This document shows, piece after piece, positions 6,381 to 44,391 of a stretch of 64,000 bases of DNA. The notes below the pieces were generated by a model. The model was not told the DNA's origin. It worked only from the letters and a program-made list of their open reading frames with translations, and did not search any database. Position 1 is the stretch's first letter; each line of letters begins with the position of its first letter. This stretch comes from a virus (taxonomy: Duplodnaviria; Caudoviricetes): IMG/VR virus record IMGVR_UViG_3300029305_003192, one strand, 5' to 3'. The position numbers and the translations under genes were made by a program.

Positions 6381-6445
6381 AAAAAAAATCACAGCCGCCA
6401 AGCAGTTCTAAACCGCCAGGTATGTCTACCTGGCGGCTGTGATTT
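6381..6445 (-). repeat. Conserved 3' cassette hairpin/terminator element, copy 1
   Basis: A-run + ATCACAGCCGCC...AACCGCCAGGTA...TACCTGGCGGCTGTGAT; related copies at 37546 and 43617. Confidence 0.8.
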
Positions 6446-6453
6446 AGATTCTC

Positions 6454-6777
6454 TTACTCTTCCGAGCAAGCGAATTCGAGGTCGTCCATATTGACGACCG
6501 GTGCGGACTTAATGGCTTCTTTGAGCCATTCCTTATCCACATTATTTTGAGGATGCAACTTGTTCCGCATCCTCTTGAAGAAGCATATCATACTAATAAT
6601 GATACGCTTGTATGCCATCATAACCTTTTTAATGAAGGTTATGATCTGATCCTTATACAGGACCACCATAGTCACTGTGCCACCTACGATGTAACACACG
6701 CAATATATGCAATAAAACATACATGCGATTTTTGCAACCTTTGAAACTTTTTCGTTAGTGATTTCAAACTTTCTCAT
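6454..6777 (-). CDS. Hypothetical membrane-anchored early protein (cassette A)
   Basis: AGGAGG SD before ATG 6777; hydrophobic N-terminal segment. Confidence 0.7.
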   Translation of the reverse strand: MRKFEITNEKVSKVAKIACMFYCIYCVCYIVGGTVTMVVLYKDQIITFIKKVMMAYKRIIISMICFFKRMRNKLHPQNNVDKEWLKEAIKSAPVVNMDDLEFACSEE

Positions 6778-6859
6778 AATCTTTACCTCCTGATTATGAA
6801 GGGCTATTTTATACATCGCTAAGTGCCCTATAACCTAGCGATATTTCCTTTATTACTAC

Positions 6860-6897
6860 TAATATGATATATATGCAGTATATGAGGAAAATACGGT
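6860..6897 (-). promoter_or_regulatory. Bipartite early promoter ACCGT-N19-TATATATCATATTA
   Basis: Four copies with identical 38-bp geometry. Confidence 0.75.
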
Positions 6898-6902
6898 GGC
6901 GG

Positions 6903-6940
6903 CATATACCCCGATACCTTAATTGGTATCGGGGTATATG
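6903..6940. terminator. Long hairpin, probable terminator of the upstream minus-strand unit
   Basis: CATATACCCCGATACC/GGTATCGGGGTATATG. Confidence 0.65.
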
Positions 6941-6974
6941 TCATTTGTTGGAGGTTTATCAGTTATTGTTGCTG

Positions 6975-7454
6975 TTACTGCTGTGGATTTTCGTTGTTAT
7001 TCTTGATGTATTCCTGAAGAGCTGAAGAGCCTTTCTTCTGTGCAGACACAGAGTTTTCAATCAGTGTCTTAACAGTCTCAGTAGCATCACCAACGAAATC
7101 GCCGAGTTCACTCCAGATCGTATTCGGGAGTTCTTCCATAATAAGTTCAACGGCCTTGTCACGGAGCATTGTAGCATCATCTTTATCAAGCTTACCGTCT
7201 TCAACAGCATTGAGAAGGTCCTTCTTATATGTGTCATTAAGAGCAGATACAACACTGTCGACAACGTTGAGAACTCTCTTCATGAGCATGTTTGCCCATT
7301 CATGACCTACATAAGCTTCACTCTGCTGCATATCGGATTCAATCTGATTTCTCTTAGTTGCCCAGAATGACGCAAGCTTGCTGATGAGATAAGCACCTGC
7401 AATTGCAAGGATAATAAGGCCACCATTGATAATTACTTCTGTAAAGTTTTCCAT
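6975..7454 (-). CDS. Putative holin (LL-H-like: one N-terminal TM plus helical domain)
   Basis: Single N-terminal TM helix; tail ending in 'LIENSV..QK' resembles LL-H-type holins. Confidence 0.5.
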   Translation of the reverse strand: MENFTEVIINGGLIILAIAGAYLISKLASFWATKRNQIESDMQQSEAYVGHEWANMLMKRVLNVVDSVVSALNDTYKKDLLNAVEDGKLDKDDATMLRDKAVELIMEELPNTIWSELGDFVGDATETVKTLIENSVSAQKKGSSALQEYIKNNNENPQQ

Positions 7455-7513
7455 GGTTATTACCACCTTTCATAAATTATAGATTTATATGTATTATTCA
7501 TACATCCAGTTTA

Positions 7514-7855
7514 TTACTCTATTGGAGTAATGTCTTTGATTTCACTACTGATACTGATGAATACTAGTCCGTTGTACCGGACATCGTAATGTATCTGAAC
7601 CATCTTGCCGACGTTTGCGAGTACAAACTTTTCCCACTTTCCGCTATCATCGGCTAATGAATACTTCTCTCTCTGGAGATTGTCTGCTTCACCAACGATG
7701 ATATGGTGATGATATGATATAAGTCTGAGGGTTATATAGTATGTGTACGTGTCCATATCACTCGCTACGTTTTGAAGTATTTTCTTAACTAAATTAATAG
7801 TAAGAATCCACATAAGACATATGAGAGCGATATAGAGGTATATCTCCGTACTCAC
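7514..7855 (-). CDS. Hypothetical membrane protein
   Basis: GGAGG SD before GTG 7855; late promoter AACA-N6-TAA at 7882-7894 (-); N-terminal TM. Confidence 0.6.
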   Translation of the reverse strand: MSTEIYLYIALICLMWILTINLVKKILQNVASDMDTYTYYITLRLISYHHHIIVGEADNLQREKYSLADDSGKWEKFVLANVGKMVQIHYDVRYNGLVFISISSEIKDITPIE

Positions 7856-7947
7856 AGGTATCGCCTCCAATCGCAGTATTCTTATGGAATTGTTTTTGAT
7901 AAAGGTATATATCCTCCCTAAGATAATTATAAGAAAGGATTGATTAC

Positions 7948-8601
7948 ATGCATATTTATGACGGTCCAGATGGTAAACAATACCCATCGGTAACCACAAT
8001 AATCCATGAGATAATGATACATCCAGAACCCTTACTTGCTTGGAGTAACTCACTCGGATTTAAAAGGAAAACATATCAGGGAGCCCTTGACGAATCATCT
8101 GCTAAGGGAACTGCAGTTCATGATTTTATGTATAGCTACATGAAGGACATTAAAGAAGTCAAGACACAAGTACCTATGAAGTTCGCTAGAGAGATATTTT
8201 ACATTGTGGATGAAGCTAAGAAGTTCTTTATCCAGCATAAGATGGGCCCTAAGACTACTACGGATGCTGAGTTAACTTTGATTGATACCGAACTTGGGTA
8301 TGCCGGTACATTAGACTGGGTAGGCGTTAAGGACGGCGTTCTTACACTGGTAGACTACAAGACATCCAAGAAAGCCAGAGAAACTATGTACATTCAATTG
8401 GCGGCATATGATAAACTCCTACAGACTCAGAAGGGCATAAAGGTCGATGAAGCGTGTATACTATTATTACATGATGATGGTGTAAAGGAGTTCATACTAT
8501 GTAGAGAGGCGATTGACCATTATTATGAGATATTCGACCTGCTTCTCCAGATATTCTATAAGATGGAATGTATGGAGTTATTATTACATCATGAGAAATA
8601 G
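7948..8601 (+). CDS. PD-(D/E)XK (Cas4/RecB-like) exonuclease
   Basis: YPSVTTII, GTAVH, YAGTLD, LVDYKTS, QLAAY. Confidence 0.85.
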   Translation: MHIYDGPDGKQYPSVTTIIHEIMIHPEPLLAWSNSLGFKRKTYQGALDESSAKGTAVHDFMYSYMKDIKEVKTQVPMKFAREIFYIVDEAKKFFIQHKMGPKTTTDAELTLIDTELGYAGTLDWVGVKDGVLTLVDYKTSKKARETMYIQLAAYDKLLQTQKGIKVDEACILLLHDDGVKEFILCREAIDHYYEIFDLLLQIFYKMECMELLLHHEK

Positions 8602-8669
8602 CCGTCCAGGCTATTTCTTTTTGTCAACAAACCCTTAATTCTACAACGCTTTATGAAAGGTGGTATAAT

Positions 8670-9668
8670 ATGAAACTTATCCAAGAATCTGATATCTATG
8701 GTTTTATACAGGGCGGTCATACAGATACTATGAACAAGCAGATTGCTGACCTTATCAGCAAGGGTATGAAGATTTGTACAAAAGAAATCGATTACAATAT
8801 CCGCACTGTAGAGAAGGCATTTAAGGACCCTCTCACAGTAGAAGCAATCAATGCTGTAATGGCCGGTACAATTGTACCATTTGTAGCTCTTAATCCTACA
8901 AATGCAATGCCTATGTATATGCCATTCATCAAGTATACAACTTCTAATGGTGATACTAAGGTTGCCATCGACCTTACACAGATGGCTCATATCAAACATG
9001 ACCTTGTTAACGATACTTGGGATATCGACATCAATAATTCCAAGCTCTACGTAATGCTCGTATCAGCTTATGTTTATCTCAACTTCTCTAACAAGACTTC
9101 CGTACTTACACCTACTCTCATGAACCTCACAGGTGATATCTGGGCTAAGCTGGTTCTTAGAATTTTTGATAATAAGTTCGGCCTCGGCACTAACCGCGAA
9201 CGTAAGGAAGCATTCACATACTTCGCTAAGAAGTTCTATCTCAAGAATATCCTCGAAGCGGTAGATGGTGTCATCGAGAATAACGTACTCAATATCTTCC
9301 CTAATAAGAAGAAGAGCCCTATGGTAAATGAGATTGAAGCCGCTATCGCTGATAGAGGTATCAATCTTTATGAGTCATTCCAGACATTCATCACAACTAT
9401 GCTCAATTACGAGATTACCGGTCTCAATGTAAACCGACTCAATCTCCCTAAGGAGAAGATGGGTCTTAGCTTCTTCATGAAGGAATTTGTAACACTTTAT
9501 GGTGCTCCTGCCGGATTCTCTCTTGCGGCATTCCCATACTTTATGTGGATGCTCATATCTGCAAATAACAGAGGTTGGATATTCAACGGTGAGAAGAATA
9601 TCGAAGCTATGTCCAAGAACGAGTTCCCTAAGATTATGACTGAATTCTACAGAATGATCCGTCTCTAA
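8670..9668 (+). CDS. Hypothetical late (probably virion) protein, 332 aa
   Basis: Long ORF with SD; late promoter AACA-N6-TAA at 8626-8638. Confidence 0.7.
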   Translation: MKLIQESDIYGFIQGGHTDTMNKQIADLISKGMKICTKEIDYNIRTVEKAFKDPLTVEAINAVMAGTIVPFVALNPTNAMPMYMPFIKYTTSNGDTKVAIDLTQMAHIKHDLVNDTWDIDINNSKLYVMLVSAYVYLNFSNKTSVLTPTLMNLTGDIWAKLVLRIFDNKFGLGTNRERKEAFTYFAKKFYLKNILEAVDGVIENNVLNIFPNKKKSPMVNEIEAAIADRGINLYESFQTFITTMLNYEITGLNVNRLNLPKEKMGLSFFMKEFVTLYGAPAGFSLAAFPYFMWMLISANNRGWIFNGEKNIEAMSKNEFPKIMTEFYRMIRL

Positions 9669-9670
9669 CA

Positions 9671-9707
9671 AAAAAAATTCCGCAAGGCACTAAGCCTTGC
9701 GGAATTT
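9671..9707. terminator. Bidirectional terminator between convergent genes
   Basis: AAATTCCGCAAGGC/GCCTTGCGGAATTT with A-run. Confidence 0.75.
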
Positions 9708-9718
9708 ATCTTTCCAAA

Positions 9719-9970
9719 TTAGCCCATCAGGGCCATTAGAAAGATAAATATATACCCGAGCAGTCCGAGAAATACCAGCCCGGTTATGTATGTGGCCTTG
9801 CAGACCACATTAAATATTTTCGCCTGGCGCATAGCGCGCTTTGGCGATTCGCCGCGAGATAATGCCGCGGCGAAATAATCCGCAACCGGCTGGTTGCGGT
9901 TATAGAATGTTTCATCGACGTAGTCGAGAAACTTTCCGATAAATGTAAATAAACTGACTATTTTTTTCAT
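9719..9970 (-). CDS. Small early protein with C-terminal TM (cassette D)
   Basis: AAAGGA SD; bipartite early promoter upstream. Confidence 0.7.
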   Translation of the reverse strand: MKKIVSLFTFIGKFLDYVDETFYNRNQPVADYFAAALSRGESPKRAMRQAKIFNVVCKATYITGLVFLGLLGYIFIFLMALMG

Positions 9971-10022
9971 ATTTTTACTTCCTTTCTTTTTACCCGCTTG
10001 TGTTCTTTGCGGGTTTGTGTAC

Positions 10023-10060
10023 TAATATGATATATACATAGATACCCTGAATTACACGGT
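10023..10060 (-). promoter_or_regulatory. Bipartite early promoter ACCGT-N19-TATATATCATATTA
   Basis: Exact consensus match. Confidence 0.75.
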
Positions 10061-10065
10061 ATCGA

Positions 10066-10078
10066 AACAGCCTTATAA
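10066..10078 (+). promoter_or_regulatory. Late promoter AACA-N6-TAA
   Basis: AACAgccttaTAA; same motif precedes many structural genes and matches the published AR9 late consensus AACA-N6-TA/G. Confidence 0.75.
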
Positions 10079-10110
10079 ATCCAATCTTTTAAAGAAGGAG
10101 ATGAAATATT

Positions 10111-13100
10111 ATGCCAGGCGTTAATTCAGGAGGCAGCACCGGCTGCAATAATGCGTGCTATACCAACTGTGCTGCTCAATGTGGTGCTGGATGTGGTGAT
10201 TCCTGCTCCCAGAGTTGTGGCGGTGCATGTTCACGCACATGCTTCGATACATGTGCATCCATGTGTATTGGTTACTGCAGTGCTAGCTGTACTGGTTCTA
10301 CGACTAAGTATGTTAATACTGCTCTTGACAATGGCAGAGAACACCGAGTAGGTGCTCAGCTATATGATTGGGAGTTTAACGATACCTATGACATAAAATC
10401 GGTCGCTAAGGATAATATGACGCTCATCGAGCAGTTGTATTCTCAGTGTATCAAAAACCAGAAGATTAGATGTGATATATCTCGTCTGTATGGTAAGATG
10501 AGCGACTTCGTTTCAGATATCGACATTAATAACGAATTGGGAGTTGGGTTCTTTTCTTATACTCTTGAAGTCCCAATGCAGAATGTTAGATGTCTTAAGA
10601 AGCTTGCACTTAAGCGAGCTAATCCACGTTTATATACAGTAAACGATACCTGCTCAAAGACAGAAATCTTCGAAAGAAGATTGATGCTCTTTATCGACGG
10701 TAGTTATTACCCAGATGTGAGATTCTTTATTGAATATGACAGATTCATCATGGTCATCGAACCATCAAGAACTCTCACTAATGATAAGATTCGAGCAATG
10801 CGTCTTGGCGACGTAACTTGGAGCTTATTAGTCATGCCATTCTCAACCACTCTGGAATTCATCGGTAATACCCAGATGATAAATGGTAGAGAAGGTGCAA
10901 CGCTTACTAAGCACGGATTATTGATTAACAATATGAAGATGACATCGACTACTAAATTCACAAGTAAGAATATGTGGTTGGCGTCGGTTCGATTTAATAA
11001 TCCGATTACCGATGGCTCCGGAAATCCTCCGGCATACAATTGGCGTTCTTTCTCTTTCATTACCAATATGACCACTGTCAATGGTAAACAATATCTGGTG
11101 ATTCCCGAATCCATTAGAAAGAGATTAAATAGCGAACATGACATATACCTCTCATTAAGTGCTATTCCACATGCTAAGGGAAGCGTACATCTTGATACTG
11201 CAAGAGCATTCCAGATTGAATTAGATAAGAATCCAATTCCGCCAGAGAATGTTATCTGTTGGACAATCAACCAGGATGGTTTGGTTAAGTACGTCCACAA
11301 TGCCGAAGTGACTCTGCATTATCCAAACGTATATGAAATCAACAATGTCCCAGATGAAGCTTCGTTGTTTGTGACCTGGTGTCACTGTGACGAGGCATCT
11401 ACTACTTTCATTAATCCTCTCAAGGAGTATATGGAATACAATACATTGTATGCTTCGGATATTATCAATGACCGTATTCCTGAAGCTATCAAGGCTTATA
11501 TTCCGTATAAACACGTGTACTATGAATGGCACTATGCTGAATATCACCGCAAGGCTACTCGTAGATATGAAGAGCCGCTGCTTTATTCATTCGAAACCCT
11601 TAAGGAGCTTCTTGATGACGACGCAAGACGTCTTGAGGGTCTTTATCTCAGGAATGTTCAGGATACGGCTTATAAGTGGCATAGCAATCCTAAGTATCAC
11701 GTTCATATGAATAAATGGGGTTCAATGGCTGATAGAATCAGACGTACTAATGGTCGCGAAATTCGTCACGGCACATATGTCGACTTTGGAATGGATTGTG
11801 TTTATTTCGTAATCGAACATGAAGACGACCGTTCTTACCCAATATGCGTCACTATTGATGGTATCAGATGCATGAATCACTTCCAATATACTGAAGGATT
11901 CCGTACATTCGTATATGTGCCCGCTGCGTTCGTAACTCCTGATTCATTTATCGAATTTGAAGTTATGAAAGTTCGTAGTAACCTCATCAATGGTATAGAT
12001 GTTAAGATGCCGGCTATCCACTTCTCTATGGAGCTTCCTGAGAACTTCCCAGATATATCTCCACAGAATTTCATGATTGCTATTCGTGAAGAAAAGCCGG
12101 ATACTGAAAGTAATGGTGGTATGAAGTACTACTATAGAGTAGCACCTAACTATGAGATGTATTGGCTGATTTTCGGTACTACCAAATATATCAACGGCAT
12201 TCCCGAGGATTATACTACCGAGTATCCCGTAGAGGAAGGAAAGTATACCAATATCCTAACATCATCTGATTCTACTCTCCTCGATGACAGGGGAAATGCA
12301 CTCAAGTTGTCAGATGGTAACTTCTGGTATGGCGGTGATTACCACTATCTGCTCGAATACTGTAAAGGTTGTAAAGGACGCCCTGATTGCAATAGGTTAT
12401 GTTGCGATAAATTCTGCGCCGGCTTATGCGACAATACATGTGGCTGTGAGCATATTCACGAATGCGGCGACTATATCAGTATTATCGAAACTCCTAATAA
12501 GACTGAGGGTCTTCTCGACGAAAATGGTGATCCTATATACCAGGACGTATATCAGGTTCGTGACCTCGGATACTACGCAGATGCAAGAAGACGATTCTAT
12601 CAGTATATGCAGAATGATAAGTATATTATCACCGACGATAGAAATGATTTCGATGACAATCATATCCCAGATCACGAAAAAATGAAGATTAAAGATGGCG
12701 TGCTTTGTAGTGAAGATTGCCAGGTACCTAATCGTGTTAGGGAAAGAATTGACCCGGTGTATATCACACCTATTACAAGCTACTTTGCTCTTAAGAACGT
12801 CCGTATGGTAGCTACTGATATCTACAGAAAGTGGACATTCGTGATTGGTAGAAATGCTAAGGGAGAATTCGACCCGACCTTTAATAAGGTAACCATCGAC
12901 GATTTCTATCTCGAGCCTTCACCAAATAAACTCCGTGTATATATGGATGGTAGACTTCTTGACCCATATACAGATTACGTCATGGACGCTTCTATCAAGA
13001 ACGGCTTCTATCTTGGAAGCTCGGTCAATATCTATATCAAGAAGAAGTTTGTAGCATTTGCTGATATTATGGTAGAATTCCTGCCATATAGATACAATAT

Positions 13101-14331
13101 GCTCTACAGACTTGAGGACGTATCTCTCACAAACTTACAGCTCAGAGAAGCTGTAATTACTAGACCATTCAGTATGGTATATTACGACGTCTATGTAAAT
13201 GGTGAGAAACTTGCCCCAGAGGACGTTACTGTAGTAACACCTTCTAAGATTATAATCAATAAGGAACTTCATAACGATATCGTATCTTTCTACGAAAGAT
13301 GTCATGACCAGGATATCTATGAAAATGACAGATATATGAAACAGGCACTCGTCGATGCGATTGCTACTGAAATAACAGGATTCCGCGAATATCTGCTTCC
13401 AGAATTCGCTAAGGCTGATATCGTAGATAATATCTATGCACCAGCGGGATGTTCCGGTACATGCACTACTGCTTGTACTACTTCCTGTACCATCATGTGT
13501 GGTTCATCATGTGACACATTCTGCGGTAAGGGATGTACTGGTTCCTGTGAGAATACATGCTTCAATGAAGCTGGAACCACTGCTTGTGGTGGATGTGCCG
13601 TAGGATGTTCGGCTGTTTGTTACGGCTGTGCTGGTACATGTATAGGTATGGCAAGTGCTAGACCAAACGCATGTAAGGACTGTACTACTCAATGTGGTAG
13701 TAGCTGTATCGGTACTTGCATAGGCACATCCGGTGGAGTTACTACATGTGAAGGATGTGCTGGTAATTGTGCCGGAACATGCTATCAGTCATGTAGTGGT
13801 ACATCATCAGCAAATGGATGTTATGGTTGCGGCACAACATGCATGTATGAATGCTCCAACTGTACCGGTACTTGTACTGGTTCAGCAGAAGGACTTATAT
13901 CAGTACCGGAAGCATGTAATGGATGCTCATCTTCATGCGGTACTGCATGTAGTGATAACTGTACCGGTACGTGCTTCAGCGGATGTAGCCAATCTTGTGC
14001 TGGATGCTCTGGTTCATGTGACAATACATGTGAAAACCATTGTACTGGAACATGTGAGAATGGATGTCTCTCAGATTGCTCAGGCTCATGCTCCAATACA
14101 TCTGCCCGTGATACATCAGTCACATCTTGCTCCGGTTGCTATGCGTCTTGCCTTGGAAACTGTATGACAACGAACGCGTCTTCTACTGAATGTAGTGGAT
14201 GTGGACACCTTTGCACCAATGCTTGTATTGGTAGATGTACAGGCTCTTGCGACAGCTTATGTCGTGGCACATGCTCGACATCTTGCGTATCTTCGGATAA
14301 TGTAAGAACTATGGCGGCCCAATTCTATTAA
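10111..14331 (+). CDS. Large late/virion protein (1406 aa) with terminal CxxxC repeat arrays
   Basis: 13 Cys at 4-residue spacing at the N-terminus, ~61 Cys in the last ~290 aa, central Cys cluster; late promoter and SD. Confidence 0.8.
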   Translation: MPGVNSGGSTGCNNACYTNCAAQCGAGCGDSCSQSCGGACSRTCFDTCASMCIGYCSASCTGSTTKYVNTALDNGREHRVGAQLYDWEFNDTYDIKSVAKDNMTLIEQLYSQCIKNQKIRCDISRLYGKMSDFVSDIDINNELGVGFFSYTLEVPMQNVRCLKKLALKRANPRLYTVNDTCSKTEIFERRLMLFIDGSYYPDVRFFIEYDRFIMVIEPSRTLTNDKIRAMRLGDVTWSLLVMPFSTTLEFIGNTQMINGREGATLTKHGLLINNMKMTSTTKFTSKNMWLASVRFNNPITDGSGNPPAYNWRSFSFITNMTTVNGKQYLVIPESIRKRLNSEHDIYLSLSAIPHAKGSVHLDTARAFQIELDKNPIPPENVICWTINQDGLVKYVHNAEVTLHYPNVYEINNVPDEASLFVTWCHCDEASTTFINPLKEYMEYNTLYASDIINDRIPEAIKAYIPYKHVYYEWHYAEYHRKATRRYEEPLLYSFETLKELLDDDARRLEGLYLRNVQDTAYKWHSNPKYHVHMNKWGSMADRIRRTNGREIRHGTYVDFGMDCVYFVIEHEDDRSYPICVTIDGIRCMNHFQYTEGFRTFVYVPAAFVTPDSFIEFEVMKVRSNLINGIDVKMPAIHFSMELPENFPDISPQNFMIAIREEKPDTESNGGMKYYYRVAPNYEMYWLIFGTTKYINGIPEDYTTEYPVEEGKYTNILTSSDSTLLDDRGNALKLSDGNFWYGGDYHYLLEYCKGCKGRPDCNRLCCDKFCAGLCDNTCGCEHIHECGDYISIIETPNKTEGLLDENGDPIYQDVYQVRDLGYYADARRRFYQYMQNDKYIITDDRNDFDDNHIPDHEKMKIKDGVLCSEDCQVPNRVRERIDPVYITPITSYFALKNVRMVATDIYRKWTFVIGRNAKGEFDPTFNKVTIDDFYLEPSPNKLRVYMDGRLLDPYTDYVMDASIKNGFYLGSSVNIYIKKKFVAFADIMVEFLPYRYNMLYRLEDVSLTNLQLREAVITRPFSMVYYDVYVNGEKLAPEDVTVVTPSKIIINKELHNDIVSFYERCHDQDIYENDRYMKQALVDAIATEITGFREYLLPEFAKADIVDNIYAPAGCSGTCTTACTTSCTIMCGSSCDTFCGKGCTGSCENTCFNEAGTTACGGCAVGCSAVCYGCAGTCIGMASARPNACKDCTTQCGSSCIGTCIGTSGGVTTCEGCAGNCAGTCYQSCSGTSSANGCYGCGTTCMYECSNCTGTCTGSAEGLISVPEACNGCSSSCGTACSDNCTGTCFSGCSQSCAGCSGSCDNTCENHCTGTCENGCLSDCSGSCSNTSARDTSVTSCSGCYASCLGNCMTTNASSTECSGCGHLCTNACIGRCTGSCDSLCRGTCSTSCVSSDNVRTMAAQFY

Positions 14332-14354
14332 TCCTTTCATATAAAATCAACGGA

Positions 14355-14391
14355 AATAACCCCCAATACCATTATGGTATTGGGGGTTATT
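14355..14391. terminator. Hairpin terminator between convergent genes
   Basis: AATAACCCCCAATACCA/TGGTATTGGGGGTTATT. Confidence 0.7.
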
Positions 14392-14412
14392 CCTTCTTGA
14401 AAGGAGTATTTC

Positions 14413-15474: not shown

Positions 15475-15489
15475 AGCAATTCACCTCCA

Positions 15490-28022: not shown

Positions 28023-31000
28023 ATGGTGTTTATGCATCCAATACCGTCATTGTATAAATTACCAATGACACCGGCTACTGAAGCCGTTATGTATGGTAAC
28101 ATTAAACAGAACGTATGTCTCAAAGGTCAGGACCACCTTAGGCTTCCTAGGGACTCTGCCAATGAGATAATAATGGTAACACCTTCAGCAGATGTTACCT
28201 ATAGAATCATCGATGGTGAATTTCCAACATTCTACCGCGATGGATATAAAGCATATATCACGGAGACCAAAATCAATAAGAAGATTGGTGCTAAGCAGAT
28301 AAAGATTATTGGATATAGCGACTTCCGTAAGGAGTATCTCGAAAGAGTAACTGATAGAGCTATTAAGTTCTACAGCGATACTCAGATGGAAGATATCGTT
28401 AGTAAGGGACAGTCCTTCATATTCGATACTGGTAGATTCCATGAGTTATACTTCACAAACAGATACTCCAACCGTGGAGACAATTATCTCTGCGAAGATT
28501 ATATGAAGTTCTTACTTGAGAGAATTGATGCCGGTGCTGGTCACTTTAAGAAGATTCTCTATGTACCAATAGATGAATGGATTAAAGCTACCGGTAAGAT
28601 TGGTATCACTAAGGATTTACTTAATAACCCAATATCTATTCTCTTTAAGTGTATGATAAAGTATCCTCAGTTCATTGAGGAACTCATGTCACGTGAAGTT
28701 ACAATACTCTTTGTAAATGCAGAGCATGGCGAAGTTCTCAAGTTTGAATTTCCTAGAGATGCTAAGGAACCAGATAAACTCAAGACTCTGAATCGCTCTG
28801 AGATAAAGCAGCTCTATGCCAAGACAAAGATACAGATTGAAAGAATGAATCTTCCATCGGGTTCCATCTCTAATGAAGAGGACCCAGATGACGAAGCTAC
28901 TACACCAGTACCAACCACAACAAACTGTGCAGTCGCTGATGAGCTTAAGAAGGAACTCACAAGTGGTGCATCCGTACTTAAGGCTGATAACTCCGTGGAG
29001 TCTTCAGATATCGATGCCGCTCTCGATGATGAAAATCATGAAGAGAGTGCAACTGATGCTGAGATTGAAGAGGTTATTGACGAGGCTGTAGAGACCATAC
29101 CGGAACTCACTGACGAAAACGTTCCAGATGATGAGAAGAAGACCATCATCGAAAATGAGGTCAAGAAGAATGTTTATATTGCAAAGTTCGTTCCTGAGAA
29201 GTCTAAGAAGCAGCTCGAATATATCGACGTTGGACAGACTAAGCAGGCTCGTGCACTGTCACAGTCTATTGACCAGATGAAATCTAAGATTATCGATGAA
29301 GAGGTTATTGATACCGATATAATTGATACCAAGAATGAAAATCTCAGACATGTCAAGTATGCAAATGCCGACAAATCATATGTTGATAAGAAGTATATTC
29401 CTGATATCAATGCAGCTGTTGCTAAACTTGCAGATGCGGATATTAAAGTCTTCATCGAAAGCATTGATGAAGAAGATACCTCTGACCAGCTTAATCAGAA
29501 GAAAACTCTGACATACCATCTGGTAGACGAGAATGGTAAGAAGCACACCGTGATGTTTGATATCCCTATTATCAGAGATGGATGCCATATGTATCTCGGT
29601 GGTGCAAATAAGATGATGCTTCACCAGAGAATATTTAAGCCGATTGTAAAGGTTCGTCCAGATACAGTCGAGCTCATTACCATGTATAATAAGGTATTCG
29701 TTACTCGTCATGGTTCTGCTTCTTCACCTGAAGTAAGTAATATCAAGAAGTATCTTACTAAACATGCAGAGAAGTATAAGGTTAAGTTTGGTAATGCTCA
29801 GGCTAATAACCAGAAATATAAAACATCTATCGAGTTCGACGACTTCGCTCGTTCACTCACACGATTCACTGTTCGTGCAGATGGTCTCAATGGTAAGAAA
29901 TGTGATGTAACGGTCTTCTTTGACCTTAAGTTAGCTGAAGAGCAATACAACGCTCTCCCAGCTAGTGCTAAGACTAAGGGGGTTAATCCGTTTACAACAG
30001 AAAATATACCATGTGTATACTATAAGCCGGTGGGAGAAGATACACCTTATATGGTGCCCATTGGCGAGGAAGGTCCAGTTGCACTGGCTAATAAACTTCT
30101 CGGTACAGATATAGGTAGTAGTGGAAATATCACCAAGGGTGGTAAATTCATGTTTGCTCGTGCCAAGATTCTCAACGAGTACATCCCAGTTGCACTTTTC
30201 TGCTGTTACTGCGAGGGTATGACTACCGTACTTCGTAAATGTGAAATCGAACACGAATATGTAGCTACTACACGAGACCTTAATAATCTCACTAAGCATT
30301 ATACGCGACCATCAGCTATTAAACTTGCAGATGGTATCCTTGTATACGAAGCCATTAAGATGGAAAATGTTCTCCTCATGAACGGTCTTAAAGGCCTTGG
30401 ACTTGAAGCATATACAATTGCAGAACTCGACTCCAAGGATACTTATATTGACCTCATTTCACAATTCTATGCATCAGCTAATCAGGCTCACAACCTGGAC
30501 AACTTCAGAATGTTCCTCATCGATAATAAGACAAAGGAAATTCTTGAAGACTTTGACCAGCCTACGGACCTTATCGAAATCATGTTCTATATATGTAAGC
30601 TGCTGGCTAATAACCAGTACCTGCCTGAAAATAACATGAATAACATGCGTATTAGAAGCAACGAAATTGTTTCTCAGATTGCGTATCAGTATATCGTGGC
30701 CGCATATAGCGACTGGGCTAAACCCACTGGGGCAAATAGACCTAAAAAGATTTCGGTTGCAAGAGATTGTGTTATGAGAGCTCTCATGTCCTCATCACTA
30801 CTCGACGAGGATTCTGTAGTAAATCCGATTTATCAGATTGAAAAGGCGAGGGCGACTACTATTTCAGCATCCACTAGTGCCAAGAATATTACACTTACTG
30901 GTATCAATAAGGTAGACGGTTATGGCATGGATAAGCGTGCATATGACGATAGTATGGTTGGTATCTTTGGACTTACATCTCCAGCGGATGCTAACGTTGG

Positions 31001-32378
31001 TATCGTTCGCGACCTCGCTCTTGAACCTGCAGTAACTTCTACAAACGGATATCTCGACGTTACTGAAATGAAAGATGTTGATAGTCTTAAATCAACTAAT
31101 CTATTTACTGCAGTAGAACTTCTTACTCCTCCTGGAGTACTTCATGACGACCCACAGCGTTCAGCGATGATGAGAGGGCAGACTTCTAAGATGGTCATGG
31201 TTGATAAAGCTCAACCAGTACTCATGGGTAATAAGGTTGAATCCATTCTCCCATATCACTTAAATAACGACTATTGTTTCACTGCTAAACAGTCCGGTAC
31301 AGTTATCGATATGAAGGATGGTGTATATGTAGTTCAATATAAGGATGGCACATACGACTCATATGATACAAGAGAAACTGTTAAGAAGAATGCATCTGAC
31401 GGTTCATATACAAAGATTCAGTTCGAATCTAAAGCCGAAGTTGGCTATAAGTTTAAGAAGGGCGAAGTTCTTGCGGTAGAACCTCGTGCATTCACCTTCA
31501 ATAAATACGACAGAGGTGCATCATGTAATATTGGTGTACTTTGTAAGGTTGCAATCGTGTCATTATACGATACATTTGAGGATAGTGAACCTATCACGGC
31601 ATCCCTCTCAAGAAAGATGGGATTCGATGACATTAAGAAGAAAGTAGTTAGCTTTGACGCTAATACTTACGTTGATAAGATATGTAAGATTGGTGACCAT
31701 GTAAGTATCGGAGATCCTCTCGTGGTGTTCGATAGTAGCCGTGGTGACCCAGAAATCCAGCAGTATCTTGATAATCTCCGTAAGGGTATGGCTGACAGTG
31801 GTATCATGGAAGAAATCATTGAAGCTAATAATACAACTGTTAAAGCTCCAATGACAGGTACAATATCTGATATCAAGATAATTACAACGGTTCCTGTTGA
31901 GCAGCTCTCACCATCCCTTCAAAAGATTGTAAATGCGTATCACAGACGTATTGAATCAACAAGCAAGTTCCTTGATAAATATAAGAACCCTGGCGATAAT
32001 CGCTACTACAAATGCGGACAGCTTCTGTCCGAAACAACCGATGTTGTTGAGGCTAAATTCGGTAAGGTTAAGGGCGAGTCAGTGGGTGAAGGTGTGATGA
32101 TCGAGTTCTATATTAAGCATCATGATATCATCAAAAAAGGTGACAAGATGTCAAATTATATAGCAGCGAAGGGTGTAAACTCACATGTCATTCCTGAAGG
32201 TCTTGAACCATGGAGCGAATACCGACCCGAAGAAGAGGTCAGTGCATTCATTACACCTATCTCAATTTCTGCACGTAAAGTACCATCTATATATCCGGCC
32301 ATGTTTGGTAATAAGGTTCTTATCGAAGCTAAGAGACAGATGGTTGAAAAGTATAAGAAAGCCCGCGGTTTAAAATAA
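28023..32378 (+). CDS. Phage multisubunit RNA polymerase beta-like subunit (large split fragment, probably virion RNAP)
   Basis: TSPADANVGIVRDL, HDDPQRSAMMRGQ, TFEDS, GDKMSNYIAAKGV, PISISARKVPS correspond to conserved RpoB regions; lacks the RpoB C-terminus; late promoter at 27988-28000. Confidence 0.9.
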   Translation: MVFMHPIPSLYKLPMTPATEAVMYGNIKQNVCLKGQDHLRLPRDSANEIIMVTPSADVTYRIIDGEFPTFYRDGYKAYITETKINKKIGAKQIKIIGYSDFRKEYLERVTDRAIKFYSDTQMEDIVSKGQSFIFDTGRFHELYFTNRYSNRGDNYLCEDYMKFLLERIDAGAGHFKKILYVPIDEWIKATGKIGITKDLLNNPISILFKCMIKYPQFIEELMSREVTILFVNAEHGEVLKFEFPRDAKEPDKLKTLNRSEIKQLYAKTKIQIERMNLPSGSISNEEDPDDEATTPVPTTTNCAVADELKKELTSGASVLKADNSVESSDIDAALDDENHEESATDAEIEEVIDEAVETIPELTDENVPDDEKKTIIENEVKKNVYIAKFVPEKSKKQLEYIDVGQTKQARALSQSIDQMKSKIIDEEVIDTDIIDTKNENLRHVKYANADKSYVDKKYIPDINAAVAKLADADIKVFIESIDEEDTSDQLNQKKTLTYHLVDENGKKHTVMFDIPIIRDGCHMYLGGANKMMLHQRIFKPIVKVRPDTVELITMYNKVFVTRHGSASSPEVSNIKKYLTKHAEKYKVKFGNAQANNQKYKTSIEFDDFARSLTRFTVRADGLNGKKCDVTVFFDLKLAEEQYNALPASAKTKGVNPFTTENIPCVYYKPVGEDTPYMVPIGEEGPVALANKLLGTDIGSSGNITKGGKFMFARAKILNEYIPVALFCCYCEGMTTVLRKCEIEHEYVATTRDLNNLTKHYTRPSAIKLADGILVYEAIKMENVLLMNGLKGLGLEAYTIAELDSKDTYIDLISQFYASANQAHNLDNFRMFLIDNKTKEILEDFDQPTDLIEIMFYICKLLANNQYLPENNMNNMRIRSNEIVSQIAYQYIVAAYSDWAKPTGANRPKKISVARDCVMRALMSSSLLDEDSVVNPIYQIEKARATTISASTSAKNITLTGINKVDGYGMDKRAYDDSMVGIFGLTSPADANVGIVRDLALEPAVTSTNGYLDVTEMKDVDSLKSTNLFTAVELLTPPGVLHDDPQRSAMMRGQTSKMVMVDKAQPVLMGNKVESILPYHLNNDYCFTAKQSGTVIDMKDGVYVVQYKDGTYDSYDTRETVKKNASDGSYTKIQFESKAEVGYKFKKGEVLAVEPRAFTFNKYDRGASCNIGVLCKVAIVSLYDTFEDSEPITASLSRKMGFDDIKKKVVSFDANTYVDKICKIGDHVSIGDPLVVFDSSRGDPEIQQYLDNLRKGMADSGIMEEIIEANNTTVKAPMTGTISDIKIITTVPVEQLSPSLQKIVNAYHRRIESTSKFLDKYKNPGDNRYYKCGQLLSETTDVVEAKFGKVKGESVGEGVMIEFYIKHHDIIKKGDKMSNYIAAKGVNSHVIPEGLEPWSEYRPEEEVSAFITPISISARKVPSIYPAMFGNKVLIEAKRQMVEKYKKARGLK

Positions 32379-35223: not shown

Positions 35224-35295
35224 AGAGCATCCTCCTTTTATTATAGGTTACAGTAGAGTTGTCATGATAATTTAATTTAACAAGAACGAGAATAT

Positions 35296-36880
35296 AATTA
35301 CCGATTAGTAAAGAGATAGAATCTCTCGGTATGTTTCGTCTATGAAGATACCGGACGTGGCATACCTCGTCGAATAATCCCATGGCGACTACAATCGTGG
35401 ACTAACCAACCACAAGGGTTGTAGTGAGGCCGGGTACAAAATCATACACTTCAGTATGAGAGTAGTTTCCGGGAGAAGGCCTATACGGGTGGGGCTTGCC
35501 CCAACTTTCCAAATGTATCAGAGAGTCAGTGAGATTTCGAGAGCTCTCTGGAGTTTATAATAGTTATATAGAAACCTTTAATTACTGTGATACATATAAC
35601 ACAGCATGCTTAATAAGATAAACATCTATTGGTTATCATTAACCAATATTGGGAGAACTTGATTATATACTTCTCTATGGAGTGCGTCACGAAAGCCTAG
35701 TTGGCAATAGTCTTCATGAAGTATATAAACGAGCAATTCCACCACTCACCATGTGTGAAAGAACGGCTAGTACCACTTGGGGCGGATGCATATCCCTAGG
35801 AAGATATGTGTACGTATTCGCAGAAAGAGCCCTATGAAGGTGAGGTACCTGTAGCAGACCGCTATTAACCTAACTTTGAAGCAGGATTAATAGTTGGAAC
35901 TCTGTGATGGCTGCCGCGGAGAAGTCGGGCGATGGCAAGTTCGTCATGCTCCGTATATGATTCTTCGGAGTCATATGTTGGAAGAATAGTAGGGTGATAA
36001 GTCTCTGGAGCACATGAGTAAATATGAAGAAGTAACAGTGGATAGATTATACGTTTGGTATCAGGCTTCAATGATGAACCACGTATCAGTATTACGACAT
36101 TAAAAGTTCGATGTTCACGAATGTCGGGTACGCTCAATGTTCGCTATCAACAGTCTCAAATATTAAAGCTAACTTCTATATGATGCAGATTATTTACATA
36201 GTGGATTAAGGACCCATTATGTAAGTAATTTTCACTTTGTCTTAAAATCGCCGGCCTGCGTCCGGCTTTAAAGATTGGCAGTGCACGAAGTGCTCTAGTG
36301 CGACAGCACTACTATTGTCCGGCTCTGTCTGAGAATTACATCTCTACCGTTCCGGCATAGCCGTTGAGCGGGAGAGTGGAATTCGAGTCACAGCAACGTA
36401 AAAGCAATAAGGGTAAAAGCAAAATGCCGGACCCTTGCGGAGCGTCGCTGGCGGACATCAGGGGAGCCAGCAGCGGAGATAGCACACCGCAGGTGAAGCT
36501 CGCCGCAGGCAATGTGCATATCCATGAGACGAAGCCTATTATAAATTGATAACAATTGTTGACAGAGTCATATATACATTTGCAGCTCTTTCGACCGTTC
36601 CAATAAAGGTCGGAAGAGTGCAAATCAATACAAATATATGGCTTCGGCTGTCGCAATATTGTTACTATATTTTGGAAGGTTGGGGGAGAAGGTCCCTAGG
36701 AGGAGGGGTATCCCCTCCTTAACCTGCACCGTCCTCGTATAGTACCAACTCTTTTCTTCCAACAGCATTTCTTATACCAGCCCTTTTGTACCAACTGAAA
36801 GAGTTGGTACTATTTAGCGTCCGACCTCCTTTAAAGGACCCCTCGTTTACATGGAAAGGAAGAAGAGGGAGGACGCGTTC
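35296..36880 (+). ncRNA. Putative large structured ncRNA or ncRNA cluster, class unknown
   Basis: No credible CDS over ~1.7 kb; more than 15 helices; G-U pairs and a C(UUCG)G loop on +; AACG-N6-TAA promoter at 35285-35297; 3' boundary uncertain. Confidence 0.65.
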
Positions 36881-37005
36881 CAATGTATTATTAAGAAAAA
36901 TAATGGCCGCCGCGTCAGCGGCATATTGTTCTTTGAATAGTAGATATTTAATATGGACTTCAAAGAGTATATATCATCACATATGAAAGGAAGGTGTGTA
37001 TACCA

Positions 37006-37497: not shown

Positions 37498-37545
37498 GAT
37501 ATATCCAATGACTATGATGTCATTGGATATTTTTTGTACCAGAGC

Positions 37546-37608
37546 AAAAAATCAATCACCACCAAGGTATCTAGAACCGCCAGGTACGTACCTGGCGGTG
37601 ATTGATTT
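37546..37608 (-). repeat. Conserved 3' cassette hairpin/terminator element, copy 2
   Basis: AAATCAATCACC...AGAACCGCCAGGTACGTACCTGGCGGTGATTGATTT. Confidence 0.8.
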
Positions 37609-37617
37609 ATCTGTGCA

Positions 37618-37905
37618 TTATATAATACGCAGATCGAACCCCTCGTCTCTGAGGGTTTTGATAGCTGGATAGAAATCTCTATCCAGCCTGATACACTTAG
37701 AATCGTGTATCATATTTACTATGTACAGAGAAGTGACGCCCAGGAATTCTAATGATTCCTTAATTGCACTGACAACGTCCGATGGCAGCAAAACCACAGA
37801 TGTCGAGTAGATATCGATCGAATGGATCGACGAGTTCGTGAAACCTTTGAAAACCTCCACTCTCGTGGTACTCTTTTCGATAGTATTAATAGATTTCATT
37901 GTCAT
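37618..37905 (-). CDS. Hypothetical early protein (cassette B)
   Basis: AAAGGA SD; flanked by the conserved promoter/leader and the 3' element. Confidence 0.7.
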   Translation of the reverse strand: MTMKSINTIEKSTTRVEVFKGFTNSSIHSIDIYSTSVVLLPSDVVSAIKESLEFLGVTSLYIVNMIHDSKCIRLDRDFYPAIKTLRDEGFDLRII

Positions 37906-37912
37906 AAGTACT

Positions 37913-37975
37913 TCCTTTCTGCCTTATAAAGGCTATGATAGTTTTATTAGTTCGGAGACTATCAACTCCTTTATT
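37913..37975 (-). promoter_or_regulatory. Conserved structured 5' leader, copy 1
   Basis: Aligns with 44242-44303 with compensatory stem changes. Confidence 0.65.
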
Positions 37976-37980
37976 CTTAC

Positions 37981-38018
37981 TAATATGATATATATGTCAT
38001 ATACACGGAAATCACGGT
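37981..38018 (-). promoter_or_regulatory. Bipartite early promoter ACCGT-N19-TATATATCATATTA
   Basis: Exact consensus match. Confidence 0.75.
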
Positions 38019-38098
38019 GCATAGAAATACCCTAATGCCACAATTATTGAAAACATTCAAGTAATGATAAAATTCGTCAGAGAGGAGGGAATATATTC

Positions 38099-38524: not shown

Positions 38525-38567
38525 TGAGGAGTTAAACCGGAGTAACCTATTATGGTTACTCCGGTTA

Positions 38568-39113: not shown

Positions 39114-39200
39114 TAGAACTCCTCCTTTCTTAACTGTTATCCGGTTGGGGAAATATATATCATATCAGCGGCAAATGACTAAAATAAAGGAGATGTTAAT

Positions 39201-40469: not shown

Positions 40470-40483
40470 AGGAGGAAATGTAA

Positions 40484-41650: not shown

Positions 41651-41740
41651 TGAGTCAGTATCAGAAGTCCTTTAGTAAAGGACTTCTTTTTTTATATGGA
41701 CCCGAACACACCATTATATTAAACGAAAGGAGGGATAAAT

Positions 41741-42205
41741 ATGAAGATCCCTGATTTACCCCAGAGCCCTGTCATGGTGAGGATACTCATGGCTCAGCAC
41801 GCAACTGCATCAGAGGAATTACAAGCCTTCGTCAAGTTCTACGTTAAAAGCTTATTTTTCTGTGCACCGTGGCTACCATTATCATTAATCATCTTCCAGC
41901 AGTGGATACCTCTGGGTATATCATTAGCAGCGATAGCATACTGCTATCCGGCAATATTTAGAAGATTAAAGAGTATGGTCAACCTGTCTCAGGTTGGTCA
42001 GATTTCGTTTATAACATCAAACAACACTCGTCTTATAAATATGGAGGAAGTTCATAATACATCCCTCTTAATAAGTGAGATGAGGGGGTGTATCAAGGGC
42101 ACTAAAGCTGTCCTTGTAGTATTGAACGTATGTCTAGTTTCTTTAACCTTTTTAAATCTCGTGATAAACGTAATAAATTTAATTCTAGGAGGAGTATTAC
42201 TATGA
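41741..42205 (+). CDS. 3-TM membrane protein (late)
   Basis: Same topology as 38099..38524; AACA-N6-TA at 41705-41716. Confidence 0.7.
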   Translation: MKIPDLPQSPVMVRILMAQHATASEELQAFVKFYVKSLFFCAPWLPLSLIIFQQWIPLGISLAAIAYCYPAIFRRLKSMVNLSQVGQISFITSNNTRLINMEEVHNTSLLISEMRGCIKGTKAVLVVLNVCLVSLTFLNLVINVINLILGGVLL

Positions 42206-42771
42206 ATATGGAATCTAACCCATCTTCACTCTATCGCAAGCTTACAGATGGCCGTGCACTGACTGAATTCCCAGAAGAGTACTTCGCACCAGTTGAATGG
42301 ATGTCAGGCAAGCCAGTAATCCGTACCTGTCGTCGTAAGAAGACGAACATTCTCGAATCATTCTACGAATGGACAATCTTCCTTACACGAAACTATGAAG
42401 TCGTACCGGACTATATGAACCGTCTTGCGATATTCTATCCAAACTTTTACATGATGAGATTCCGTTCTCGACAGAATAACCTGCTCGATATCGAAATCGA
42501 TTCAATCTATGACCTTACATCTACTGCATATACACCAATCTATATCGATTCGGAAACTATGCAGGAATCCAAGAAGAATGCAACTGCTATCCTCCCATCA
42601 CCAGACTACAGATGGGGTGGTACTAAGGTTGCTACAGTCCGTCAGGAAAATAATGAAATCGTCAGAAAGGTTGTACCTGTATCACTTACACTTGAATCGA
42701 GTAAGTCCTTCGGTATCATCTATGATGACATTAAGAACGGACGTATCCCACTTCCGGAGGTTATTGATTAG
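42202..42771 (+). CDS. Hypothetical protein
   Basis: AGGAGG SD before ATG 42202; ATGA overlap with the upstream gene. Confidence 0.75.
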   Translation: MNMESNPSSLYRKLTDGRALTEFPEEYFAPVEWMSGKPVIRTCRRKKTNILESFYEWTIFLTRNYEVVPDYMNRLAIFYPNFYMMRFRSRQNNLLDIEIDSIYDLTSTAYTPIYIDSETMQESKKNATAILPSPDYRWGGTKVATVRQENNEIVRKVVPVSLTLESSKSFGIIYDDIKNGRIPLPEVID

Positions 42772-42929
42772 AAAAATCAAGTCCTCGGAACACTTCCGTA
42801 AACAGCCATAAGGTTAATGTATTCCATTTTAGATGGACCCCTTTTTGAACCCCCGTGAGTGATGAACTCACGGGGTATTTTCCGTCGTTGGACAATCATG
42901 TAATAAATATAACGATTGGAGATGATTAA

Positions 42930-43568
42930 ATGGCAGTAATGCCCCAGTTGGAATATAAAGGTTCGTTTGCTAAGTGCGTTGGTATAAAGGGTACCGATGC
43001 TTATGATATTGCGTTCAATAAACCTATGGAGTACTTCTATAGTGCAGATAACTACACCCATTTTATCAAGGGTTGTGAGAAGATGGTTAGAAGTCACGAA
43101 GATTACTCCAGGTTCAAAGACTATGTAATGAATGTAATCGGTATTGACTTCTGTCAGGTAACGCCAAACGTACGCTTAGGTGATGCTACAATTGAGATGC
43201 ACCATGCATTCTTCAACCTCTATGATCTTTGCGCAATTATTACTAACAAGAGATTGGAATGCGGTGAAAGAGTTAACACATTCACGGTGGCAAACGAAGT
43301 TCTTGATGAACACTTCGCCCTTCATATTCCGGTTGTAATGCTTGCTACGACAAACCACGAGATGGTAACCAATAGAGATATCTGGCTCAACGTTAAGAGT
43401 GGCTTCGGTTATATCTCTCAGTTTATCGAGAAGTATGCTCCATATATGACACCGGAACACAAGTACCGTATAATGACTACAATTAAGCTGTCTTATGAAA
43501 TCGATAGCTTTGATAATAATATCTTTGATGATACAGAAAAAATTAAACGAGTACTTGCGCATACCTAA
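42930..43568 (+). CDS. HNH-like fold protein, paralog of 55096..55908
   Basis: C...IEMHH...L.T.NHE.V pattern; GACA-N6-TAA at 42891-42903. Confidence 0.55.
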   Translation: MAVMPQLEYKGSFAKCVGIKGTDAYDIAFNKPMEYFYSADNYTHFIKGCEKMVRSHEDYSRFKDYVMNVIGIDFCQVTPNVRLGDATIEMHHAFFNLYDLCAIITNKRLECGERVNTFTVANEVLDEHFALHIPVVMLATTNHEMVTNRDIWLNVKSGFGYISQFIEKYAPYMTPEHKYRIMTTIKLSYEIDSFDNNIFDDTEKIKRVLAHT

Positions 43569-43616
43569 CTAATAATACCCAGTAACGGATAATCCGTTAC
43601 TGGGTATTGATTTAGG

Positions 43617-43678
43617 AAAAAAAATCACCGCCGCTAGGCTAACCAGAACCGCCAGGTACGTAACCCAGCGGCGGTGAT
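43617..43678 (-). repeat. Conserved 3' cassette hairpin/terminator element, copy 3
   Basis: 18-nt AGAACCGCCAGGTACGTA identical to copy 2, within an ATCACCGCCGCT/AGCGGCGGTGAT stem. Confidence 0.8.
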
Positions 43679-43692
43679 ATTAAGTAACCGGC

Positions 43693-44235
43693 TTATTCGG
43701 TAGGAGCCGGTTTTGGAGGATTCTGCCTTGCCTTCTTTTCATCCTTTTTATCCTCCTTGAGGAGGTTTATGAGGGCCCTCTTAAGCCCCTCATCCTGAGA
43801 AGCCTTTTTGAGGAGCTCCTCAAGATCGCCGGTTGTTACCGGCTTAGTTCTGATTCTACGATCAAGTCTCAGGTGGTGTGCGGGTGGGAAGTCCACCGCA
43901 CACCTATAAAGCCCTCTGCCTGTGCAGAAAGCTTTATATGTCACCCCATCGGGGTGAATATCGGTCACCTCGGTGACCGTATAAAACCCGGGCTCTACTG
44001 AGCCCTTGATTGTCACACCGGTGTTGGTAATATCCAACACCGATGTTTGTGATGGCGATGCCGCGGCATCTCTTCTGGAAAGGCGCACGACCATGTGGGG
44101 GGTATCCCCCACCACAAGCTCTGCCCACTCGCCGTGGTAGAGCTTGTTGTCATCCATGAGCATCTTAACGATGCTTGAGGATGACGCCTCGTAATAATAG
44201 TTGTACAAAGGTCTGTTGTTATCGATCTTTCTCAT
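43693..44235 (-). CDS. Hypothetical early protein (cassette C), GC-richer than core genes
   Basis: AAAGGAG SD; conserved flanks. Confidence 0.75.
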   Translation of the reverse strand: MRKIDNNRPLYNYYYEASSSSIVKMLMDDNKLYHGEWAELVVGDTPHMVVRLSRRDAAASPSQTSVLDITNTGVTIKGSVEPGFYTVTEVTDIHPDGVTYKAFCTGRGLYRCAVDFPPAHHLRLDRRIRTKPVTTGDLEELLKKASQDEGLKRALINLLKEDKKDEKKARQNPPKPAPTE

Positions 44236-44241
44236 AAGATC

Positions 44242-44303
44242 TCCTTTCTGCCTTTCGGCTACGGCGGTTTTGATCCTCGGAGACCACCAGTAACTCCTTT
44301 ATT
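44242..44303 (-). promoter_or_regulatory. Conserved structured 5' leader, copy 2
   Basis: Aligns with 37913-37975; GCC-GAAA-GGC tetraloop hairpin next to the SD. Confidence 0.65.
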
Positions 44304-44353
44304 AAGGTGATATGACGCGGTAGCTATGCTACATCATTCACCTCTTAATGCAA

Positions 44354-44391
44354 TAATATGATATATACGCCATATGCCCGGAAATTACGGT
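44354..44391 (-). promoter_or_regulatory. Bipartite early promoter ACCGT-N19-TATATATCATATTA
   Basis: Exact consensus match. Confidence 0.75.

Follow-up and report, generated by a model that had tools for sequence, protein, structure and literature searches.

Dispersed single-gene slots behind a shared predicted early promoter carry divergent cargo in an uncultured jumbo phage

We analysed a 64,000-nucleotide stretch (the window) of the virus record IMGVR_UViG_3300029305_003192 (Duplodnaviria; Caudoviricetes), part of a 156,816-bp viral contig (G000) that is 65% complete. Small genes stand singly between core genes at eight places on this contig, four of them in the window, and are surrounded by a shared promoter, a structured leader and a terminator. 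Strong divergence between strains is confined to these units, which we call slots; at one of them the gene is replaced or the unit is absent, and another carries a predicted AcrIII-1 gene. We interpret the slots as fixed, insulated sites for immediate-early host-interaction genes that are diversified by ordinary DNA recombination under selection by host defences, and we give this interpretation a probability of roughly two in three.

A preliminary description of the window had reported a repeated 38-bp element ahead of four minus-strand open reading frames (ORFs), with three related 3' hairpins and shared leader and start words, and all of these were confirmed. The elements are located at 6897-6860, 10060-10023, 38018-37981 and 44391-44354 (slots 1 to 4; predicted +1 at 6857, 10020, 37978 and 44351, respectively) and nowhere else in the window, where the chance expectation is ~3e-6. 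All four ORFs are genuine gene calls and are represented in public protein sets. Scanning the whole contig with a weight matrix revealed ten copies scoring 31-55 bits (shuffled maximum, 15), the other six at window-relative positions 71639, 94406, 101710, 106989, 114527 and 119932. Eight of the ten precede one small gene each (slots 1-8), and two precede structured units lacking an ORF. The units had been called antisense. However, slot 1 (6454) points the same way as the genes on either side of it, and three units beyond the window are encoded on the plus strand. Orientation with respect to the neighbours is therefore mixed, and the antisense arrangement is incidental.

Early promoters of phage AR9 consist of an AT-rich element followed after six bases by the start, and are read by an injected virion polymerase (PMC5312081). 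An AT-rich core, six nucleotides and a purine start were found in 30/30 slot alleles collected and in five copies from a distant complete relative (G001; L053-L057; 246,689 bp), and the phage encodes an AR9-group polymerase beta subunit. By this geometry, we predict that the 38-bp element is an AR9-type early promoter for the virion RNA polymerase and is transcribed early. It differs from the AR9/PBS1 promoters by a conserved additional box near -40 (about -40 to -36, with the AT-rich core ending at -7) and by its number, about 10 strong stand-alone copies in 157 kb vs 41 AR9 early promoters (PMC5312081); that study also describes no leader library like the one reported below. Core-only early promoters (640 and 39152) precede conserved genes that are 80-98% identical between strains. 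Host sigma-A might read the -10 part, which contains a -10-like hexamer, but the -35 position is a poor fit and has no sigma70 consensus. Hairpins lie next to the promoter on its upstream side at slots 1, 4, 5, 7 and 8, and the one at slot 1 (6903-6940) is the terminator of a holin-like gene. In G001, five promoter copies precede small stand-alone genes, one of them a very short ORF; four of the five share a leader unlike those of the window phage, and the terminators are plain. The copy at window-relative 94406 (minus strand; L061) is followed by a class-B-like leader, a ribosome-binding site, a start codon with an immediate stop, and a terminator, and could be an empty cassette or a small RNA. 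The copy at 101710-101960 (plus strand; L060) appears to drive an ORF-less multi-hairpin RNA of ~210 nt (-81 kcal/mol including the terminator).

Close strains were located via 90%-identity clusters of the flanking genes. Between strains that are otherwise 92-100% identical, the cargo differs by 30-70%, or is replaced or missing. Median identity was below 75% for 7/7 comparable slot genes vs 8/61 other genes (p=7e-6; p=8e-5 against small genes only), and the 90% clusters of cargo had 1-3 members, compared with 7-18 for flanking genes in 11/12 cases. Slot 1 encodes a 107-aa protein without a family match (6454-6777, minus strand) with a hydrophobic N-terminal half; its alleles are 76-113 aa long and 43-51% identical in alignment, with the last few codons in common. 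Slot 2 (9719-9970, minus strand) encodes 83 aa with a hydrophobic helix at the C-terminus, and its counterpart in other strains is a remote homologue (32% over 56 aa). The 180-aa slot 4 protein (43693-44235, minus strand) combines a beta-rich domain with a charged helical tail and is represented by ten clusters at 90% plus a 29% allele, the alleles being 29-69% identical. Among 1.84 billion representatives, this family had no member beyond these alleles, and those checked occupy the same site. Cargo identity at slots 6-8 was 70%, 42-59% and 40-55%, and that of the neighbours 92-99%. The slot 2 cargo and the slot 4 cargo of L045 were considered as unrelated replacements and rejected, because both are remote homologues. 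Short C-terminal tails are retained among alleles, acidic at slot 1 (6454-6475) and Lys/Pro-rich at slot 4 (43693-43740), and may be either crossover remnants beside the terminator or targeting signals.

In total, six of the seven compared slots hold one gene family each, syntenic and with very divergent alleles (29-70%). The capture of unrelated genes, as first proposed, was therefore seen at slot 3 but not at these six. Invariant and syntenic cargo had been named as evidence that would contradict the cassette idea; we found synteny at six slots and invariance at none of the seven. Two of the four window ORFs are indeed GC-richer than core genes (0.45 and 0.51), as had been noted, and third-codon-position GC is raised (0.50 vs 0.41, p=1.7e-4), but the difference in overall GC is not significant (p=0.07).

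Synonymous divergence (dS) of the cargo ranges from 0.8 to saturation at slots 1 and 4 and from 0.45 to 0.9 at slot 2, and nonsynonymous divergence (dN) is 0.18-0.6; flanks of same-species strains have dS of 0.04-0.39 and dN <0.035. Cargo dN/dS is about 0.2-0.4, and the substitution spectrum is not adenine-specific. Cargo is not over-represented among the changes that separate near-clonal pairs (1/396 vs 3/2748), with 0 of 18 differences in cargo for L058/L059 and 0 for L040/L041. In the slot 4 allele tree, the sister lineage L048 nests with the window, L044 and L051 (100/100), which is discordant with the tree of the neighbouring gene, where L048 is split from all five others. Together, the near-clonal pairs, the near-saturated dS and the discordant trees indicate that the alleles have a long history of maintenance and reshuffling and do not stem from recent mutation. 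Identical tracts of 44-66 nt are found within otherwise saturated alleles.

Slot 3 of the window encodes a 95-aa orphan (37618-37905, minus strand). L040 instead encodes an 87-aa protein here that is Rossmann-like, unrelated to the orphan and remotely related to the slot 8 family; homology of the two slot 3 cargos was rejected (probability 0.1). At six loci (L044, L058, L063 and L065-L067) the unit is missing from promoter to terminator, and these loci have one common junction with no target duplication and with neither promoter nor terminator left. Comparison of related genomes, as the preliminary description had suggested, thus revealed both different cargo and empty sites between the same flanks. 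The existence of an empty site, and the PeSL-like look of an upstream hairpin with a promoter (PeSL, promoter early stem-loop of T4-like phages), would suit pop-out and pop-in through mini-circles, or an integron-like excision at the 3' hairpin. We consider this very unlikely. Because the 5' and 3' flanks are not homologous, one crossover between them could not excise the gene. A single chimeric element remains after PeSL excision (PMC2839356), whereas the empty site has none. Excised circles, which the preliminary description had suggested looking for, were also not seen: no circle joints were present in the contigs of four runs, a weak negative because contigs drop rare forms. A joint at 37600-37975 in run X2 was rejected as a variant, as it corresponds to the paralogous slot 5.

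Exchange between slots was shown for promoter heads and leaders. The self-contained units with variable cargo between conserved flanks, as proposed in the preliminary description, are also supported. The slot 3 promoter head is almost identical to that of slot 5 (window-relative 71639). L068 and L070 share a near-clonal block of 8.2 kb in which 8 differences are concentrated within 35 bp at slot 6 and about 5 are found elsewhere. This patch covers -25 to +10, including the promoter and +1, and is a DNA-level conversion patch that extends into untranscribed promoter bases. The AcrIII-1 allele common to these two strains was rejected as evidence of allele transfer, as it sits in the clonal block.

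The leaders form a small library. The three leaders first described as alike share a 9-nt word (at 6854, 37975 and 44303), but they have two structures, class A at 6454 and class B at 37618 and 43693; likewise, the start word common to two ORFs (at 6779 and 44237) is not retained in other strains. All four window leaders are on the minus strand. The class A leader of slot 1 (6800-6841) is predicted to fold into an H-type pseudoknot with 8-bp and 5-bp stems (0/40 shuffles), and the slot 2 leader (9971-10020) into a simple hairpin without a pseudoknot. At slot 3, a class B pseudoknot (37936-37969) with covariation precedes a small hairpin and then the ribosome-binding site, and the slot 4 leader (44236-44351) has an extra 5' hairpin (about 44343-44305) before its class B pseudoknot (44297-44260). 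Class A also occurs at slots 6 and 8 and at slot 4 of some strains. The same few classes (A, B, B' and C) are seen at more than one slot, and all four are found at slot 4 across strains, behind unchanged upstream DNA. Nearly all pseudoknots of classes A, B and B' were matched by 0 or 1 of 40 shuffles, and 9/130 control upstream regions reached an equal score. In the second stem of class B, two pairs change on both sides and 94.5% of cells are paired vs 31-62% in slid controls, a modest covariation signal from five related sequences. An Rfam search of the window, leaders and terminators included, gave no match near the gathering score, and the leaders were rejected as ribozymes or riboswitches for want of such support. 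Exact-pattern searches of viral and GTDB contigs did not find the class A leader or the three-arm hairpin described below.

These observations also bear on a simpler explanation, in which the slots are fast-evolving early genes with flanks kept alike by common regulation and selection, and recombination acts genome-wide without any special mobility. The syntenic homologues at six of seven slots fit this explanation, as do the variable genes outside slots (8/61), the recombination of strains in long blocks, and G001, where the promoter recurs with a different shared leader and with ordinary terminators. However, entire leader classes are swapped at one slot while the DNA upstream is untouched, a conversion patch falls exactly on a promoter, and gain, loss and replacement at slot 3 run exactly from promoter to terminator. 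The genes behind core-only early promoters, moreover, have stayed conserved. We therefore regard this explanation as unlikely.

The 3' hairpins at 6381, 37545 and 43617 belong to one repeat family of three-arm structures, in which a first arm has two possible partners and compensatory changes occur in both helices. On the minus strand they terminate slot 1 (6381-6445; arm X, two alternative partner arms and a U tract), slot 3 (37545-37608) and slot 4 (43617-43680), and slot 2 has an ordinary terminator outside this family (9670-9707). The hairpin occurs five times on the contig, each time ending a slot, and the five remaining promoter copies end otherwise. The pairing of 5' and 3' elements implied earlier thus holds from the side of the hairpin (5/5 follow a promoter copy) but not from that of the promoter (5/10 without a hairpin). 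At slot 8 of two strains a plain two-arm hairpin replaces the three-arm version, and the three-arm hairpin is therefore not an obligatory recombination site; we would guess that it serves as a bidirectional or delayed terminator. Palindrome loops are inverted between strains (window 6903-6940 in L035 and 43570-43680 in L058, where the inner 30-nt segment of the slot 4 terminator is inverted), which suggests template switching or cruciform resolution.

A dedicated site-specific recombinase, nuclease or reverse transcriptase, encoded in the remaining 83 kb, might instead target the flanks or hypermutate the transcribed cargo. Such an enzyme would recognise the promoter head and the three-arm hairpin, or the pseudoknot-capped transcript, and, at the eight scattered counter-defence loci, bring about cassette replacement or targeted mutagenesis. 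The sharp limits of divergence, which begins near +1 and ends at the terminator at every slot, are compatible with this, as are the restriction of the slot 4 family to alleles of one locus, the covariation in both alternative helices, and the 35% of the genome lying beyond the contig. Nevertheless, we consider it very unlikely. Near-clonal pairs show no surplus of cargo change, the spectrum and the dN/dS values do not point to a mutator, the conversion patch takes in untranscribed bases, and the hairpin itself was swapped at slot 8. Searches of G000 (65% complete) and G001 found no tyrosine or serine recombinase, Y1 (HUH) transposase, reverse transcriptase or RecA, a weak negative. A retro-mechanism was rejected: the spectrum is not adenine-specific, and neither a template copy nor, in partial G000 and in G001, a reverse transcriptase was found.

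The clearest functional assignment comes from slot 6 (window-relative 107108-107503, outside the window), which encodes a DUF1874 protein (PF08960, 31.1 bits; cut-off 26). It matches the structures 2j6b, 2x4i and 6scf and has an aligned catalytic His (H47 of SIRV1 gp29), and is predicted to be an intact AcrIII-1 ring nuclease. Type III (RNA-targeting) CRISPR systems still act on jumbo phages that shield their DNA. AcrIII-1/DUF1874 ring nucleases destroy the type III CRISPR signal (bioRxiv 10.1101/778746), and another preprint questions the anti-CRISPR role of the family in native archaeal hosts (10.1101/2023.01.10.523387). The anti-defence cargo anticipated earlier is thus represented by one known family, but the four window cargos had no Pfam, PHROGs or fold match and none belongs to the AcrIII-1 family; two of them look membrane-associated. 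For a model of the slot 4 protein (predicted local distance difference test, 76), searches of PDB and BFVD and the VIA wide search gave no match, the best score (Z 3.8) reflecting a helix alone. The fold of the slot 8 family is Rossmann-like and generic, with unspecific matches (Z 8.0 at best), which left the idea of a DHH decoy unsupported. From their timing, divergence and company, we infer an anti-defence role for the window cargos. Because one cargo is a known anti-CRISPR, the promoter probably marks the counter-defence arsenal of the phage.

Diversification of fixed slots by ordinary recombination would proceed as follows. By the AR9 precedent, the injected virion RNA polymerase would read the slot promoters at once. 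The upstream hairpin and 3' terminator would keep the transcripts monocistronic, and the 5' pseudoknot beside the ribosome-binding site may provide a stable, translatable mRNA whichever gene follows. Alleles, heads and occasionally a whole gene would be swapped by general homologous recombination, either between slots or between co-infecting genomes, through gene conversion or a double crossover. The breaks would fall at promoter, leader and terminator because only these sequences are common to divergent alleles; a dedicated recombinase would not be required. Because the selection imposed by host defences would be frequency-dependent, old divergent alleles would be maintained and would pass between strains and sister species. 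Several points weigh against this model. No recombinase, RecA included, was identified in the 65%-complete genome, and the model does not account for the first creation of a slot at a new site, as the empty site shows no target duplication. A function was assigned for 1/8 cargo families, and the folds of two gave nothing specific. Start sites, timing and leader function are predictions, and the strain data consist of short metagenomic contigs, few per slot.

The slots were compared with known systems. PeSLs are repeated early promoters with an adjacent stem-loop before variable ORFans, and act through general recombination at conserved regulatory DNA (PMC2839356, PMC4122927). As in PeSLs, a stem-loop lies within or next to the promoter, and genes differ, are replaced, or are gained and lost between close phages. 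In contrast to PeSLs, the slot promoter is AR9-type rather than sigma70, the units stand alone at scattered sites between core genes and are not clustered in hyperplastic regions, and the flanks are not direct repeats and leave no single element after loss. The slots also show mostly deep allele polymorphism at fixed sites, with exchange of a pseudoknot leader library. Lambdoid morons are single genes with their own promoter and terminator between conserved genes, use host sigma70 and are expressed in lysogens. The T-even ip locus holds different genes or alleles in one place, and its genes share a capsid-targeting N-terminus. The slots resemble both in several respects: a lone gene with its own promoter and terminator is flanked by conserved genes, one site can hold different genes or alleles, and anti-defence cargo occurs; ip proteins have an anti-restriction function (PMC12373910) and differ between phages (PMC4122927). 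Absence at the same site in close relatives, typical of morons, was seen at slot 3 (six empty loci) and not at the six other compared slots, and the host sigma70 promoters of lambdoid morons, active in lysogens, set them apart. The capsid-targeting N-terminus of ip proteins was not seen in slot cargos, and eight slot loci share interchangeable heads. Integron cassettes are promoterless and form a tandem array, whereas slot units have their own promoters and stand alone; no tyrosine recombinase (IntI) was detected in G000 (65% complete) or G001, and the attC analogy drawn earlier is not supported. Diversity-generating retroelements differ too, since slot variation includes all substitution classes and indels and has no template copy, and no reverse transcriptase was detected in partial G000 or in G001. 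The slots therefore work like the PeSL and ip-locus systems and look like morons, but they are not PeSLs by promoter, direct-repeat flanks or clustering. We found no report that combines such cassettes, pseudoknot leaders and AcrIII-1 cargo.

Sequence comparison places the phage among the AR9/phiKZ-type jumbo phages, because of its divergent DnaB, SbcD and thymidylate synthase and its 1448-aa polymerase beta subunit. The latter (window 28032-32378; weak PF00562 match) has its best phage matches in LPJP1, which is a Listeria phage, Staphylococcus jumbo phages and PBS1. We infer a Firmicute host from the nearest cultured phages and the strong ribosome-binding sites. The sequencing runs containing the phage are from animal faeces and gut, one of them bovine, and we assign the phage to the gut of animals, largely ruminants. 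The same proteins recur on a 239,651-bp contig. Pattern scans of IMG/VR and JGI did not find close relatives; most promoter-pattern matches were unrelated AT-rich DNA, and one (L032) was the distant relative G001. A thymidylate synthase search returned relatives at 36-39% only, none syntenic, and Atlas searches gave no usable match.

Other features of the window lie outside the slots. A hairpin-rich region of 1.8 kb (35224-37005) without a credible ORF or Rfam match is of equal size in L040, L044, L058 and L063-L065; two small contigs from the RNA run (X24), which covered no slot, map inside it (35563-35877 and 36030-36180), and it is possibly a large non-coding RNA. The 1406-aa protein at 10111-14331 has Cys-x-x-x repeats at both ends, an N-terminus that differs between strains, and a weak match to PF27846 (radical-SAM target type). 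A second variable region without a slot promoter spans 45255-48757, where other strains lack genes 45255, 46089, 47927, 48112 and 48335 or have versions that are 59-64% identical. Insertions that are strain-specific and lack slot flanks occur at L068:8651-9325 and L063:2346-3140, and comprise a metallophosphoesterase gene and an HNH/NUMOD4 homing endonuclease 3' of the polymerase beta gene.

Slot 4 presents a pattern like that of the major histocompatibility complex in a phage: a whole protein family (29-69% identical) consists entirely of the alleles of a single locus, and the genes on either side are 97-100% identical. The promoter can serve as a highly specific marker for those genes of an uncultured Firmicute-type jumbo phage on which the host exerts the strongest selection. 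The pseudoknot leaders, which are interchangeable, are RNAs not yet catalogued and may have a role in early expression. The other seven cargo families, four of them in the window, form a ranked list of potential new anti-defence or takeover proteins, and a natural allele series is available for each.

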